This document shows positions 8,864 through 23,973 of a stretch of 30,007 nt of DNA, in pieces. Location of the stretch: IMG/VR virus record IMGVR_UViG_3300020414_002119, positions 1-30,007 of that record, one strand, 5' to 3'. The position numbers were made by a program, and so were the translations under genes. The DNA comes from a virus (Duplodnaviria; Caudoviricetes). Below the pieces are notes generated by a model that worked only from the letters and a program-made list of their open reading frames with translations, did not search any database and was not told the DNA's origin. Each line of letters starts with the position of its first letter. Positions within the stretch are counted from its first letter, which is position 1.

Positions 8864-9979
8864 TCAAATCATCCCAGGTGGATAAGGGGGGTTCTTGAGA
8901 GCGTCTTGGTACACCTCATAGAGCTCCTGAATGGATTTGACAGGCTGATCGTAATAAGACGCACCGCCCTTGTAAGGCAGAGATGCCCACTCAGGAGAGA
9001 AGTTCGTCATCACATCAGTGAACTGATCGATGTTGCTGATCGGTGCAGAAGGATCTACGCCACGACGATTAGCTAGGAAATCGAAGGCGCGTTCTTGGCT
9101 TTCAGGACTGAAGTCACGGATATTGGGATTGGCTTTTGTGATGTCCTGCCAAGTATTATTCATGAACTGGTAAGCACCAGCTGCTTCTGAACTCGTGCCC
9201 CATGGAGTGGGATATGGGCTATTAGGGTGTCGAGAAAAGTCGTTAAGTAGACGAGGATTAGATTGACTATGACCAAACATCATGCGGTATGCATCAGGCC
9301 CTCGTGTTCCTTCTGCATGCTGCACAACCTGAGACAAGGCATATCTATTTGGATTAGTCATATCTGGTCCAGGACTATATCCAACATTTTGATAGGGATT
9401 ATTACCGCTAACTGGATATAACGCTTGTTTACCTCCTCCAGATTGTGGACTAACTGGATAAAGAGATTGCTCGCCATTTTGTTCAGGCATAGTCATGGTA
9501 GGAGATTGGAGTTGTTCAACTTGCTTACGTAGAGTTTCAAGGTCCTTCAAAATAGGGTCGTAGCCTGAAGTGTTCCCACTTTTGATAAGCGCTTCTCTGA
9601 GGCGAGAGTAATCAAGCTTCGGGATCTCCTTATCCTTCCTAAAGGCTTCAGCCAATGTATAGCCTGCCAAAGCAACCTTTCCGGCAAACTTTTTCCGATC
9701 CTCAATTTGCTGCCTAGTGCGATCTAATTTGTACTTGGTGTTGATATTGTCAATTTTAATTTTGCCTTCAAGCTCAGTTGTCTTTAATAAAGCTTCGTTG
9801 TTTCTCTTAGCAGTTCGCTCAAGAGAGACATTCTCAGCACCACTTAAAATTTGCTGAGCATAATTAGGACTACCTCGATCTACAGCCTTTTGAAGATTAA
9901 GTGCGTCTTGTCCTGCCTCTCGCCCAGATTGAACATATTCACCAGGGTTGGCACTTTCGGCTAAAGCAAAACGGTACAT
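8864..9979 (-). CDS. Lambda-R-like lysozyme / lytic transglycosylase (GH104-like) with ~200-aa N-terminal extension
   Basis: Motifs HAEGT, DFSRHP, SEAAGAYQF, DFSPESQ and EWASLP in the C-terminal half. Confidence 0.88.
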   Translation of the reverse strand: MYRFALAESANPGEYVQSGREAGQDALNLQKAVDRGSPNYAQQILSGAENVSLERTAKRNNEALLKTTELEGKIKIDNINTKYKLDRTRQQIEDRKKFAGKVALAGYTLAEAFRKDKEIPKLDYSRLREALIKSGNTSGYDPILKDLETLRKQVEQLQSPTMTMPEQNGEQSLYPVSPQSGGGKQALYPVSGNNPYQNVGYSPGPDMTNPNRYALSQVVQHAEGTRGPDAYRMMFGHSQSNPRLLNDFSRHPNSPYPTPWGTSSEAAGAYQFMNNTWQDITKANPNIRDFSPESQERAFDFLANRRGVDPSAPISNIDQFTDVMTNFSPEWASLPYKGGASYYDQPVKSIQELYEVYQDALKNPPYPPGMI

Positions 9980-18470: not shown

Positions 18471-19430
18471 ATGGCTACAACAAAGATGACTGGCGATTCT
18501 GTTCGTGCATACCTCCGAGAAATCGGACGTGTGCCTCTTCTTGAGCACGCAGATGAGATCCTGCTTGGTAGACAGGTTCAGCGCTTGATGGAGCTTGAGG
18601 AAAAAAGAAAAGAGCTTTCAGAACTCCATGGTCACAGCATTGACGATCAAAAGCTTGCAGAGCACTACAACCTCGACCGAAAGAGCCTGAGGCGTGAGTT
18701 ACGGGCTGGGAAGAAAGCGAAGGACACAATGGTTACGGCGAATCTCCGTCTCGTCGTCAGTGTTGCCAAGAAATACACGAAGCGGAATATGGAGCTGCTT
18801 GACATTATTCAGGAAGGAACCATTGGCCTAGTTCGTGGGGTTGAGAAATTTGATCCAGGTCGTGGATATAAATTCAGCACTTATGCATATTGGTGGATTC
18901 GTCAAGGCATCACCAGAGCTATTGCTGAGAAGAGCAGGGCAATCCGTCTGCCAATTCACATCACAGAAAATTTGAATCGTCTGAAGAAAGCTCAGAGGGA
19001 CTTGTCTCAGAAGAATGGTTATATGCCGACAGTAGATGAGCTGGCAAAGGAGCTTCAGCTCAAGCAAGATGAGATCAAGGATCTGATGTGCAAAGCCAGG
19101 CACCCTACGTCGCTAGAGGTCAAGATTGGGGAAAACAGGGATACTGCATTGATCGATCTTCTAGAAGATGAGACGCAGCTACCAGACATGCTTTTAGAGC
19201 GTGCTTGTGTGAAGGACGATATTCATGAGCTATTGAATAGCCTGCCCGAGATGCAGTCGACAGTTCTTTGTATGAGATATGGAATTGGAGAAGAAGTACT
19301 TGAGCCGATGTCCATGACGGCCGTAGGTCAAGCGCTAAACATGAGTAGAGACCGCGTTAGAACATTAGAAAACAATGGTCTTAAAGGCCTCAAGGATCGA
19401 AGCAATTCGGTGTCTGAATACTTAGCATAA
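18471..19430 (+). CDS. Phage-encoded sigma-70 factor, RpoD/SigA family (cyanobacterial group-2-like, no region 1.1)
   Basis: Region 1.2 DSVRAYLREIGRVPLL; region 2 ANLRLVVSVAKKY...GYKFSTYAYWWIRQGITRAI; region 4 HTH MSRDRVRTLE. Confidence 0.95.
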   Translation: MATTKMTGDSVRAYLREIGRVPLLEHADEILLGRQVQRLMELEEKRKELSELHGHSIDDQKLAEHYNLDRKSLRRELRAGKKAKDTMVTANLRLVVSVAKKYTKRNMELLDIIQEGTIGLVRGVEKFDPGRGYKFSTYAYWWIRQGITRAIAEKSRAIRLPIHITENLNRLKKAQRDLSQKNGYMPTVDELAKELQLKQDEIKDLMCKARHPTSLEVKIGENRDTALIDLLEDETQLPDMLLERACVKDDIHELLNSLPEMQSTVLCMRYGIGEEVLEPMSMTAVGQALNMSRDRVRTLENNGLKGLKDRSNSVSEYLA

Positions 19431-20610: not shown

Positions 20611-23274
20611 ATGTGGATCGATAGAGTGAAAGCTCTCCTGTCGATCTAAAACCGGGTGAATTCAGGGAAGCCGTAACGTATAGACGACGGTAATCCTGAG
20701 CCAAGCCCCTCACGATCTTGAGGGGAAGGTGCAGAGACTACTGGGGGAATCAAGCGTGATTCGTAAAACCAGACCAGCGCCCGGCAACAAGAAATACATA
20801 CCTTGTTGAAGAGATAGTCCGGCCCTTATCGAAAGATTTGGATACGCTGAATGATTTTCCGAAGCTCCTTGGTGCTGAACTCTACAGGCCCCACCCTGCT
20901 TACATCATTGAGATGGCAGTTGAGCCCGTAGTTGTTCACGACTTAAACGCTTGAGTCGTAACTGGGTGAATTCAGGGAACCCCTCCCAACCTTTTTAATT
21001 CGACAGAACCTAGACAAGGAAAACCGGTGACAACCGGAAGTATATTTTTTGGGGAATCCTGAGCCAAGCTCTCCCGACAGGAGAGAAGGTGCAACGACTA
21101 GGTCCCGCGTGGAAACACAGTAATGGACCCAAGAGCGCCCAGCTCCATTTTGGATGATGAGATAGTCTGAACAATACCGATGGGAAAGGTATTGAAGGTA
21201 AAGATAAAGAGCTTTACCGGTAACACAATTGCAGCAAGCAACCCGGTCAAACTGTTCAGTTGGACCGTTATCGCTTCTGGGGTAAACCTGGCACTAAGGA
21301 GTCTCGTGAGCGCACCGCAGATCAAACTCTGGGTAGCGCATCTGCTCGCAACATCGTCAAAGACAAGGTCCTGGTGACGCTAAAATCTCCATTGGCGTCA
21401 CGATAATAAAGAGGGTGAATTGCTGGAAGGCCACCATTAAAGGTTAATCAGCAGCCAAGCTTTTCTACAAGAAAGAAGGTTCAACGACTAGATCCCGAGA
21501 GGTAACTCAGTAATGGATCCACGAGCGCCCTCCACCGTAAAGGTGATGATATAGTCTGATCTATACCAATGGTAAAGGTATAGAACCAAGAGATAAAGAG
21601 CTCTTGGGATAACAACAATGCAAGGAGTACACCGGTCCTGCTGATTCTCGCGATTCTGCACAACCATCCACCTTCAAGGTGGCCCGCGAAACTCTGATCA
21701 CTGCTCAGCGTCTGCTTCTGGACACTGGCAACCTCAACGTCTTCCACCAGTCAATCGGTTCTCTGACACTGCTGGACGACTACCGTCGCTGGCGTAACAC
21801 TGATTGCGCCGCCATTGTGTGAGCAATGGGCAATAACTGGGTGAATTCAGGGAACCCCACCATCAACGGGGAATCCTGAGCCAAGCCAGGCCAACAGCCT
21901 GGAAGGTGCAACGACTAGATCCCGAGAGGAAACTCAGTAATGGATCCACGAGTGCCCAGCATCTCAAGTCTGAGATGAAGATATAGTCTGACCTATAGCG
22001 ATGGCAAAGCTATAGAACCAAGAGATAAAGAGCTTTTGGGATAACATTTGGATCGTGTGTTCGCCAACGAACTGCTTAAGGCCGAAGCCAACGGCCAAGC
22101 TGACTCTGACAAAGGTGGTTATTACCTGCCTGGTGGCAAAGCCAAAGGCGCAACCGGTGGCACCCTCGGTGTTACTTATGCCTCTGGTGAATCCGCCAAG
22201 TTCAGCGTCAAAACTGACCTCCTCGAAGTGGTCAAGGACATGCGTAAGCGCAACGTCCCCACTTTCGCTTAATACCATGGGCGCTTACTTGAGTAATCAA
22301 GTAATGAGCATTCCGTGAATTGCTGGAACCCCTCCATCACTATGGGGAATCAGCAGCCAAGCCAGACCAACAGTCTGGAAGGTTCAACGACTAGGCAAGC
22401 GTGGAAACACGACGAGCCCACGAGCGCGGAACACCCTACTGGGGTGAAGATATAGTCTGAACTACACCGATGGAAAAGGTATAGAAGGAGCGGATAAAGA
22501 GCCGCTTCGATAACAATTTGGATGGTTATTACCGCTGCATCGTGGATCCGACCGCGATGATGCATCTTCGCCAAGACAGCGACTTCCGTAGTGATATTGC
22601 GGCCTTAGTTGGTAACAACTAAGTGAATAAAAGGGTGAATTGCTGGAACCCCTTCAATACATTGGGGAATCAGCAGCCAAGCCAGACCGACAGTCTGGAA
22701 GGTTCAACGACTAGAAGCCGAGAGGAAACTCAGTAATGCTTCCACGAGTGCCCTTCATCCGTTATGGATGGTGATATAGTCTGAACTCAATCGATGAGAA
22801 AGATTGAGAGCCAAGAGATAAAGAACTCTTGGGATAACAATATTGGAAATCGCTCGTTATCCTGGCGCTGGAATGGTGAATCCGATGAACCCCGCTGCGG
22901 GTCCTTCGGCTAACTTCTTCCAAGGTATGGGTCCTGCTTACGGCCAGGCTGGTTTCGTAGCAGGCGCTCCACAAATGCCAACCGGATTTCTCTTCGAAGG
23001 CGTCAGGTGGTTCGAATCTACGAATTTACCTGAAACCTCCTACAACCTCGTTGTGACCTCTGCTTCCTCTAGCGCTGCTGATTACGGTGCCGCTCAGTTG
23101 ATCTTCTTTGGTCCTCAGGCTGTTGGCGTTGGTATTGGTGGTAACAACGCTCAGATTCTGCTCAACAACAACGATGATTTCTCTCGTTTTGTGATCATGA
23201 TCTGGTCCCTGTTTGCTGGCTTTGAAAGTCTGAATTCAGACTTCGTCACAGTCGGATACTCTTTTGTTTATTGA
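20611..23274 (+). CDS. Major capsid protein, 382 aa after splicing; join(20611..20622,20850..20944,21232..21381,21621..21795,22051..22269,22521..22589,22846..23274)
   Basis: Exons of 12+95+150+175+219+69+429 = 1149 nt give a stop-free frame: MWID|NDFPKLLGAELYRPHP...VVHDF|SKQPGQTVQLDRYRFWG...VLVTL|KEYTGPAD...YRRWR|DRVFANE...NVPTFA|DGYYRCIVDPTAMMHLRQDSDFR|EIARY...GFLFEGVRWFESTN...GYSFVY. Capsid identity comes from size, position, strong SD and HK97-fold-like motifs (GQTVQL, FEGVRWFESTN). Confidence 0.9.
20623..20849 (+). ncRNA. Group I intron 1 (227 nt, phase 0)
   Basis: P1 GAUCGAU/GUCGAUC with U.G; P3 CCGGGUG/CGCCCGG; P4 UUCAGG/CCUGAG; P7 GACUA/UAGUC; terminal G. Confidence 0.93.
20945..21231 (+). 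ncRNA. Group I intron 2 (287 nt, phase 2)
   Basis: P1 ACGACUU/GAGUCGU; P3 CUGGGUG/CGCCCAG; P4 UUCAGG/CCUGAG; P7 GACUA/UAGUC; ends CAAUUG. Confidence 0.93.
21382..21620 (+). ncRNA. Group I intron 3 (239 nt, phase 2)
   Basis: P1 GUGACGCU/GGCGUCAC; P3 GAGGGUG/CGCCCUC; P4 UUGCUG/CAGCAG; P7 GACUA/UAGUC; ends CAAUG. Confidence 0.93.
21796..22050 (+). ncRNA. Group I intron 4 (255 nt, phase 0)
   Basis: P1 GGCGU/GCGCC; P3 CUGGGUG/UGCCCAG; P4 UUCAGG/CCUGAG; P7; ends CAUUUG. Confidence 0.93.
22270..22520 (+). ncRNA. Group I intron 5 (251 nt; boundaries may be shifted by +1)
   Basis: P1 CGCU/GGCG; P3 UUCCGUG/CGCGGAA; P4 UUGCUG/CAGCAG; P7; ends CAAUUUG. Confidence 0.9.
22590..22845 (+). ncRNA. Group I intron 6 (256 nt, phase 0)
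   Basis: P1 CCGU/GCGG; P10 AGUGAUAUU with exon GAAAUCGCU; P3 AAGGGUG/UGCCCUU; P4 UUGCUG/CAGCAG; P7; ends AAUAUUG. Confidence 0.93.
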
Positions 23275-23890: not shown

Positions 23891-23913
23891 TCGTCATAGT
23901 CAACTTGTGAATG

Positions 23914-23937
23914 AAGCGTCCTTCGGGGCGCTTTTTT
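23914..23937 (+). terminator. Rho-independent terminator of the capsid operon
   Basis: AAGCGTCC-TTCG-GGGCGCTT followed by TTTT; cUUCGg tetraloop. Confidence 0.88.
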
Positions 23938-23973
23938 CATGTCTATAATTAGTAAAGATGAATAATATTTATA

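Follow-up and report, generated by a model that had tools for sequence, protein, structure and literature searches.

The 30,007-nucleotide stretch of phage DNA analyzed here (IMG/VR record IMGVR_UViG_3300020414_002119, positions 1 to 30,007; hereafter the window) carries a major capsid protein gene that is interrupted by six short group I introns. Comparison with the same gene in other phage contigs indicates that these introns belong to one mosaic family and, as judged from the sequences, the mosaicism is real and population-wide. P4-P6, the P7 insert and P9 would be the interchangeable domains of the chimeras, and the guide and both strands of P3 stay together. An earlier interpretation of this DNA made from its letters only (the sequence-only reading) had proposed such a mosaic family, and domain identities, clonal simulations and incongruence length difference (ILD) tests bear out, as the best explanation, that introns of different sites recombined or underwent gene conversion with one another. 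It is probable that the lineage of each site enters by homing, loses its endonuclease and travels in recombination or co-conversion tracts, with conserved joints permitting cross-site conversion and the guide and P3 being kept matched.

Six Group I Introns in the Capsid Gene

Group I introns were called as covariance-model matches to Rfam RF00028 at or above its gathering score (50 bits). All six introns, which lie between 20600 and 22850, passed with scores of 51.7-101.5 bits (Table 1). Boundaries were set with a U before every 5′ splice site and a G at every 3′ end, and six of six exon ends are U and six of six intron ends are G. Sites are named by codon and phase, giving 4.0, 35.2, 85.2, 144.0, 217.0 and 240.0 for introns 1-6. 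Removal of the introns restores the host frame: the spliced product of 382 amino acids has no internal stop and aligns with the intact homolog P0002 at 92% identity with 0 gaps. It shares 85-92% identity with 96 full-length homologs, and P0002 itself matches the phrog_1357 major head protein (E 1e-17); a sequence search of the PDB with P0002 as the query gave 0 matches. Given that no open reading frame (ORF) longer than 143 amino acids is left in the intron-split gene, gene callers overlook genes of such build.

Both strands of P3, P4 and P7 were located in all six introns, and the fold of intron 4 has a z of −2.9. A core-pattern search returned five matches in the window and none in 100 shuffles; intron 2 was missed because its long P5 extension exceeds the gap of the pattern. 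Intron 1 represents a short-P9 subfamily that is set apart from introns 2-6, and it is 82-85% identical to the same-site introns of contigs L006 and L055. None of the six introns (227-287 nt) contains an ORF, and hence there is no intron-encoded endonuclease in the window.

A P1 helix with a U.G pair to the intron's own exon end was found in every intron, with a length of 4-9 bp. The suggestion in the sequence-only reading that each guide matches its own exon end is therefore upheld as to the presence of P1 but not as to specificity in introns 5 and 6, where P1 is just 4 bp long and pairing with the own exon end is not uniquely the best of the six. P10 pairs best with the own 3′ exon in each of introns 2-6 (5/5), and not in intron 1.

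The interval 20945..22845, to which the sequence-only reading had assigned its mosaic, runs from the first base of intron 2 to the last base of intron 6, and the motifs described there were recovered in the stated introns. The P4/J6-7 type is UUCAGG-CCUGAG-GUGCA in introns 1, 2 and 4 and UUGCUG-CAGCAG-GUUCA in introns 3, 5 and 6; the post-P7 insert CCGAGAGG(A/U)AACUCAGUAAUG is found in introns 3, 4 and 6 and GCGUGGAAACAC in introns 2 and 5; and the P6 motif is found in introns 5 and 6. The motif common to introns 2 and 5 is a 12-nt hairpin, and the whole insert of intron 2 has an identity of 0.82 to that of intron 4 and of 0.67 to that of intron 5. The insert type of introns 3, 4 and 6 is the commonest in the whole intron family and is thus no mark of local copying.

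Table 1. Positions of the capsid gene, its introns and other features of the window
Feature	Position	Strand	Remarks
Major capsid protein gene	20611..23274	+	Seven exons; spliced coding sequence (CDS) 1149 nt, 382 aa
Exons of capsid gene	20611-20622, 20850-20944, 21232-21381, 21621-21795, 22051-22269, 22521-22589, 22846-23274	+
Intron 1	20623..20849	+	Site 4.0 (after codon 4), 227 nt; RF00028 101.5 bits
Intron 2	20945..21231	+	Site 35.2 (codon 35, phase 2), 287 nt; RF00028 51.7 bits
Intron 3	21382..21620	+	Site 85.2 (codon 85, phase 2), 239 nt; RF00028 76.9 bits
Intron 4	21796..22050	+	Site 144.0 (after codon 144), 255 nt; RF00028 71 bits
Intron 5	22270..22520	+	Site 217.0 (after codon 217), 251 nt; RF00028 72 bits
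Intron 6	22590..22845	+	Site 240.0 (after codon 240), 256 nt; RF00028 70.9 bits
Tract recently shared with contig L357	21787..22866 (approximate)	+	Spliced CDS nt 424-741 plus introns 4 and 6
Free-standing NUMOD4/HNH-like ORF, 146 aa	20077..20517	−	NUMOD4 and PHROG HNH matches; divergent from capsid gene
Sigma-70 factor, phage-encoded	18471-19430	+	Regions 1.2, 2, 3, 4; two genes upstream of capsid gene
Terminator-like hairpin	23913-23944	+	3′ of the gene next after capsid gene
Endolysin/lysozyme-like ORF	8864-9979	−	Opposite strand, inside structural module

Intron Sites in Related Phages

Relatives were collected by a protein scan together with motif scans, of which four were productive. Counting the window, 134 loci with this capsid gene were obtained. 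Junction calling produced 102 intron calls, of which 69 were distinct. Three of these were dropped as mis-bounded (L378, together with L084 and L095, which were later identified as site-4 introns with a long insert), leaving 66 introns at 21 site labels. The site 35.2 call of L207 was left out because it is ambiguous with 36.1. Identity comparisons were made with 48 short introns; 17 long ORF-bearing introns were left out of both identity and tree tests, and the tree tests also omit sites 4.0, 6.1 and 138.0, which belong to the other subfamily, and four near-duplicates (40 to 36).

The majority of the genes are intron-less, and presence/absence polymorphism of introns was seen among the relatives. 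An intron core was detected in 7 of the 80 best protein-scan loci, a ranking that favors intact genes. Five of the six window sites are occupied in other phages. Site 85.2 was seen solely in the window and in L353. These two agree at 99.6% over a stretch of 3870 nt that runs through introns 1-3, and intron 2 recurs unchanged in L353. The intron sites lie in conserved protein segments (0.983 versus 0.908, p 0.0003). The capsid gene of L357 (2100-5089) contains eight short introns, at sites 35.2, 48.0, 132.1, 144.0, 240.0, 285.0, 292.2 and 351.2, and has exons down to 23 nt.

Two guide lineages occupy site 35.2, one in L170, L213 and L216 and the other in L354, L357 and the window; the site-351.2 introns are sister to one of the two. 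Sites 35.2, 36.0 and 36.1 all lie within 2 nt of one another. The P7-insert motif was found at 57 loci. This capsid family accounts for 39 of them and other capsid genes for 11 (types phrog_247 and phrog_267; L363 matches Gp10A-like), so that the intron family looks specialized for capsid genes across unrelated phages. At the other seven loci (L215, L349, L368, L371, L374, L376 and L380) a short acidic ORF is split; its 3′ part in L349 has no Pfam match. Pattern scans for the intron-2/5 motif and for the P5 extension of intron 2 each returned 0 viral contigs, and a scan for the site-217 guide returned no contig beyond one already in the sample.

Mosaicism across Intron Domains

When the introns were compared domain by domain, the nearest neighbor of P1P2 was exclusively a same-site intron in 37 of 41 cases. 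The corresponding counts were 30 of 41 for P9, 26 of 41 for P4-P6 and 8 for the P7 insert, the last being low mainly owing to ties. Of all domains, the guide domain follows its site most closely, contrary to the retargeting of guides envisaged in the sequence-only reading.

Individual introns combine domains from different sites. Intron 2 has a site-35 guide and both P3 strands together with a site-48-type P4-P6: its P1P2 has an identity of 0.88 to that of L354 site 35.2, and its P4-P6 has an identity of 0.90 to that of L357 site 48.0 as opposed to 0.45 to the best same-site intron (triplet tests, p 0.0006 and 0.0002). In intron 5, P1P2 has an identity of 0.83 to that of L222/L364 site 217.0, whereas P4-P6 has an identity of 0.92 to that of intron 6 versus 0.84 to the same-site intron (triplet p 0.012). 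The site-217 intron of L222 has the guide of intron 5 with the P7 insert and P9 of intron 4, and the P9 region of intron 4 is correspondingly 0.97 identical to that of L222 site 217.0. With gap runs collapsed, triplet tests gave p values of 0.0002-0.012 in five of five hand-picked triplets.

Congruence of the domains was assessed with 36 non-redundant introns, from which the 3′ helix strands were removed where paired in the consensus fold. The domain distance matrices had a mean Spearman correlation of 0.164, compared with 0.405 ± 0.07 in clonal simulations with per-column rates, and 0 of 300 simulations were as low. The per-domain comparison that the sequence-only reading had suggested thus revealed incongruent domain distances.

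In the clade of L207, L210, L219 and L372, introns at sites 36, 48 and 107 have P8 and P9 sequences in common, which suggests conversion between neighboring introns, also of ORF-bearing with ORF-less forms. Selection for unlike P3 helices in adjacent introns, which would avoid cross-pairing and exon skipping and was considered in the light of PMC10136302, was not supported: P3 is shared in 2 of 31 adjacent pairs versus 3.1 expected (p 0.38).

A Tract Recently Shared with L357

Intron 4 is identical to the site-144.0 intron of L357 at 255 of 255 positions, and intron 6 is identical to the site-240.0 intron at 255 of 256. Exon mismatches between the window and L357 number 3/318 nt within the tract, in comparison with 29/423 before it and 57/408 after it (third-position permutation p 0.0005), and the upstream flank shows 70.9% identity. 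This pattern is that of a recent exchange of a tract with ends near introns 4 and 6, between the phage of the window and the L357 lineage. Intron 5 lies inside the shared tract, yet is absent from L357, and must therefore represent a recent gain or loss.

Endonuclease-bearing Forms and the Proposed Mechanism

In the relatives, 8 of the 21 site labels, including two of the six window sites (4.0 and 144.0), have endonuclease-bearing forms of the HNH or LAGLIDADG type. The phrase "without an intron-encoded endonuclease" in the sequence-only reading accordingly holds for this genome, though not for the family. LAGLIDADG_2 ORFs are located in long introns at sites 48.0, 107.0 and 88.1, and antisense LAGLIDADG_3 ORFs at sites 30.2, 139.1, 144.0 and 285.0. 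At site 4.0, antisense HNH_3 ORFs occupy same-site forms of intron 1 in L084, L095 and L203, and the same-site form of intron 4 in L366 has an antisense LAGLIDADG ORF. The LAGLIDADG ORF of the site-88.1 intron in the same contig (L366:5215-5673, minus strand) appears frameshifted, and this is possibly a stage of endonuclease decay.

From these sequence comparisons we infer splicing of the capsid introns, homing activity and the mechanism of conversion as follows. The six introns would self-splice from the late transcript, each by means of its own P1 and P10. Endonuclease-bearing alleles would invade a site and then lose the ORF, and in co-infected cells the short forms would then be carried along in tracts of co-conversion or ordinary recombination, such that arrays would accumulate one site at a time. 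The near-invariant core joints J4/5, J6/6a, J6/7 and J8/7 could provide the short stretches of homology at which introns of different sites cross over. In an essential gene, the survivors would be swaps in which the guide and both P3 strands are matched, yielding chimeras of the form guide-a/core-b/P3-a. Homing with co-conversion of flanking markers has been described for phage group I introns in the available part of PMC3984707, and gene conversion within a group I intron in that of PMC4059233.

RNA libraries were also searched. Three runs contained 5-8% of the words, and X4 gave nothing. In a 418-nt RNA-library contig from X1, position 21795 is followed directly by 22051, with 4 differences over 357 nt; this contig may represent spliced RNA or an intron-less allele. 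RNA-library contigs also join across the sites of introns 2, 3, 5 and 6, mostly with other base differences; intron-less alleles are common, and these joins have no DNA control.

Several points weigh against this account. The sample consists of motif-selected metagenomic contigs. The triplets were picked after inspection of the data, and both strands of helices were counted in them; a sixth triplet, on intron 3 and the only one tested for that intron, gave no recombination signal (p 0.15). The ILD test, which yielded 0/200 for guide versus P4-P6, 0/200 for guide versus P9 and 6/200 for P4-P6 versus P9, can be anticonservative, and the last value is marginal. Part of the mosaicism may reflect exchange within the genome, as the P4-P6 of intron 5 is closest to that of intron 6 (0.92). 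Finally, no endonuclease-bearing form occurs in the sample at sites 35.2, 85.2, 217.0 and 240.0, and homing is therefore not demonstrated for these four, of which 85.2 was observed in this phage alone.

Origin of New Sites

Five of 210 site pairs have at least 5 nt of the exon end in common, and introns of these pairs are more alike past the guide (identity 0.64 versus 0.48, permutation p 0.01). Sites 214.0 and 285.0 are identical just past the guide, and 35.2 and 351.2 are mutual best matches. New sites thus tend toward exon ends that are readable by the old guide, which is the opposite of the pattern expected from guides retargeted after insertion. Such a bias is predicted by reverse splicing (PMC3984707), and equally by ectopic insertion of any kind when only spliceable insertions survive.

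It is conceivable, if rather doubtful, that new sites are founded by guide-directed transposition at the RNA level (reverse splicing, reverse transcription and recombination) and that inter-phage spread follows, a route that would supplement the account of homing and conversion given above. Besides the shared-exon-end pairs, the targeting of P1 by 4-6 nt, as described in the accessible part of PMC3984707, favors it. On the other hand, selection alone yields the same pattern, in that an ectopic DNA-level insertion in an essential gene persists only where pairing by the guide is possible from the outset. Past the guide, two of the five pairs show little similarity (0.25 and 0.54), the similarity of core plus P9 shows no effect of a shared exon end (p 0.15), and a Spearman correlation of −0.10 was obtained overall. 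No excess of shared exon ends was seen among sites of the window's own CDS (1 pair versus 0.55 expected, p 0.42), and a scan of 30 window ORFs revealed no reverse transcriptase. The same part of PMC3984707 describes direct evidence for a reverse-splicing route in group I introns as lacking. A tentative proposal would be that a cyanophage intron family specialized for capsid genes forms one recombining gene pool, in which new sites arise by guide-directed transposition at the RNA level into exon ends readable by the present P1, introns spread from phage to phage without an endonuclease of their own, and whole domains are reshuffled among sites. If this is true, natural populations would preserve in the family a record of reverse-splicing transposition and ribozyme domain shuffling.

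Alternative Explanations of the Mosaic

Mosaics might arise on a clonal tree without recombination, through convergent or compensatory changes in short helices. The P4 type does consist of three coupled short motifs, and many modules are 12-33-nt hairpins with few states. Nevertheless, intron 2 and L357 site 48.0 share both the long P5 extension and P6 at 0.90, the 62-nt P9 region common to L222 site 217.0 and intron 4 has an identity of 0.97, compared with a mean of 0.66 for other-site pairs, and the clonal simulations were never as incongruent as the data. Convergence appears contradicted by these long shared variable tracts and is improbable.

Slightly less probable still is the local proliferation proposed in the sequence-only reading, according to which one intron spread within the lineage of this genome, for example by reverse splicing, with guides retargeted later and copies homogenized in place. 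Introns 2-6 have a family-specific P7 insert and P9 extension in common; P4-P6 of intron 5 is closest to that of the adjacent intron 6; site 85.2 is known from this phage alone; and, in the L219 clade, P6 and P8 of the site-48 intron are shared with its site-36 neighbor (p 0.0012). By contrast, the mutual identity of introns 2-6 averages 0.667 (n = 10 pairs), compared with 0.672 to other-site introns elsewhere (n = 167), and among the 48 short introns the best full-length match of each of introns 2-6 belongs to another phage contig. For intron 3 this match is L357 site 35.2 (0.80), the best neighbor reaching 0.72. For the most part, introns of unrelated capsid gene families were at least as close as the neighbors, an outcome that the sequence-only reading had itself named as adverse: they are closer or equal for introns 3, 5 and 6, tie for intron 4 and are more distant just for intron 2. 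Introns from the phrog_247 and phrog_267 capsid families have core identities of 0.79-0.81 to introns 3, 4 and 6, and the maximum among neighbors is 0.79. The occupancy of sites, which the same reading had proposed to map, is likewise contrary to local spread, with the sites of introns 2, 4, 5 and 6 (and 1) used in other phages. Because neighbors are no closer than introns elsewhere and each best match lies in another contig, an origin of introns 2-6 by local expansion is not supported, and for introns 2, 4, 5 and 6 these comparisons largely refute it.

There is a very small chance that the mosaics are assembly chimeras between similar repeats: all contigs are assembled from metagenomes, the introns have identical stretches of 30-60 nt, and intron 5 is known solely from the window, but the 99.6% identity of L353, whose sample may not be independent, extends through introns 1-3, L357 has introns 4 and 6 as well, the site-217 chimera is found again in L222, L364 and L379, and two crossovers would be needed for chimeras that retain both P3 strands of one parent and the right exons.

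Equally remote is collaborative homing, in which the free-standing HNH gene would mobilize the ORF-less introns as F-CphI does the cyanophage psbA intron. The NUMOD4/HNH-like ORF is divergent and lies 94 nt upstream of the capsid gene, but it is present at the same place in many relatives without an intron call and absent upstream of many intron-bearing genes, and the window copy has Phe at a position that is His in 53 of 58 aligned copies. As a mobilizer or dedicated partner of the introns, after the model of S-PM2 psbA and F-CphI, this gene was rejected, being kept regardless of introns and having exchanged His for Phe. The five copies with Phe are those of the two most intron-rich phages (the window with L353, and L357) and of L007 and L051, which have no intron call.

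Surroundings of the Capsid Gene

The sole cultured relative found with a homolog of the capsid gene is Synechococcus phage S-EIVl, and the gene is S-EIVl-like. Given this relative and the presence of terminase, virion structural protein and sigma factor genes among the window ORFs, a cyanophage is the likely source of the window. A promoter scan gave no signal above shuffles. Other features are listed in Table 1.

Comparison with Known Systems

How group I introns reach new sites is treated as an open question in the part of PMC3984707 available, and in the present family a single gene has 21 site labels. With its natural chimeras and its sister-site pairs whose exon ends match, the family makes it possible to test transposition and modularity with short RNAs. 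Six to eight predicted splicing steps would, moreover, be tolerated by a highly expressed capsid gene. Late genes with several introns, capsid introns and same-site mosaic introns are already in print. A literature search found no description of cyanophage capsid intron arrays or of cross-site exchange, with the qualification that its coverage was incomplete and that the supplementary intron table of PMC11878797 may list such genes. The comparisons that follow refer to the accessible portions of the cited reports.

As in the present gene, orf142 of Staphylococcus phage Twort is a late structural gene with short exons and several group I introns, two of them highly similar (PMC10136302, PMC11878797). 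It has three introns, compared with six here and eight in L357, and exon skipping is described for it, whereas domain exchange across sites and the survey of sites belong to the present analysis. Mycobacteriophage LittleE and lactococcal phage Tuc2009 likewise have a group I-type intron in the major capsid gene (PMC3706429). The LittleE intron contains an antisense endonuclease ORF, and a 156-bp part of it is 98% identical to a tail-gene intron of related phages. These are single capsid introns with splicing observed by reverse transcription-PCR, as opposed to six ORF-less introns known from sequence. In the crAss-like Zeta group, a metagenomic phage capsid gene also has several group I introns and is split into five fragments (PMC7886860). 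Those introns were found by way of protein domains, mainly endonucleases, whereas all introns of the window are ORF-less, ∼250 nt long and overlooked by protein-based searches.

The phage group I homing cycle resembles the present system in having endonuclease-bearing and ORF-less forms at one site and co-conversion of flanking markers (PMC3984707). Unlike collaborative homing as described in the same source, no partner endonuclease was identified in the window, and four of the six sites are without an endonuclease-bearing form in the sample. The yeast mitochondrial omega intron offers chimeric group I introns produced by horizontal transfer and gene conversion, including conversion between forms with and without the endonuclease gene (PMC4059233). 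Conversion of omega takes place among alleles of one site, whereas in the capsid genes it would act across the sites of one gene, with the resident guide and P3 being kept.

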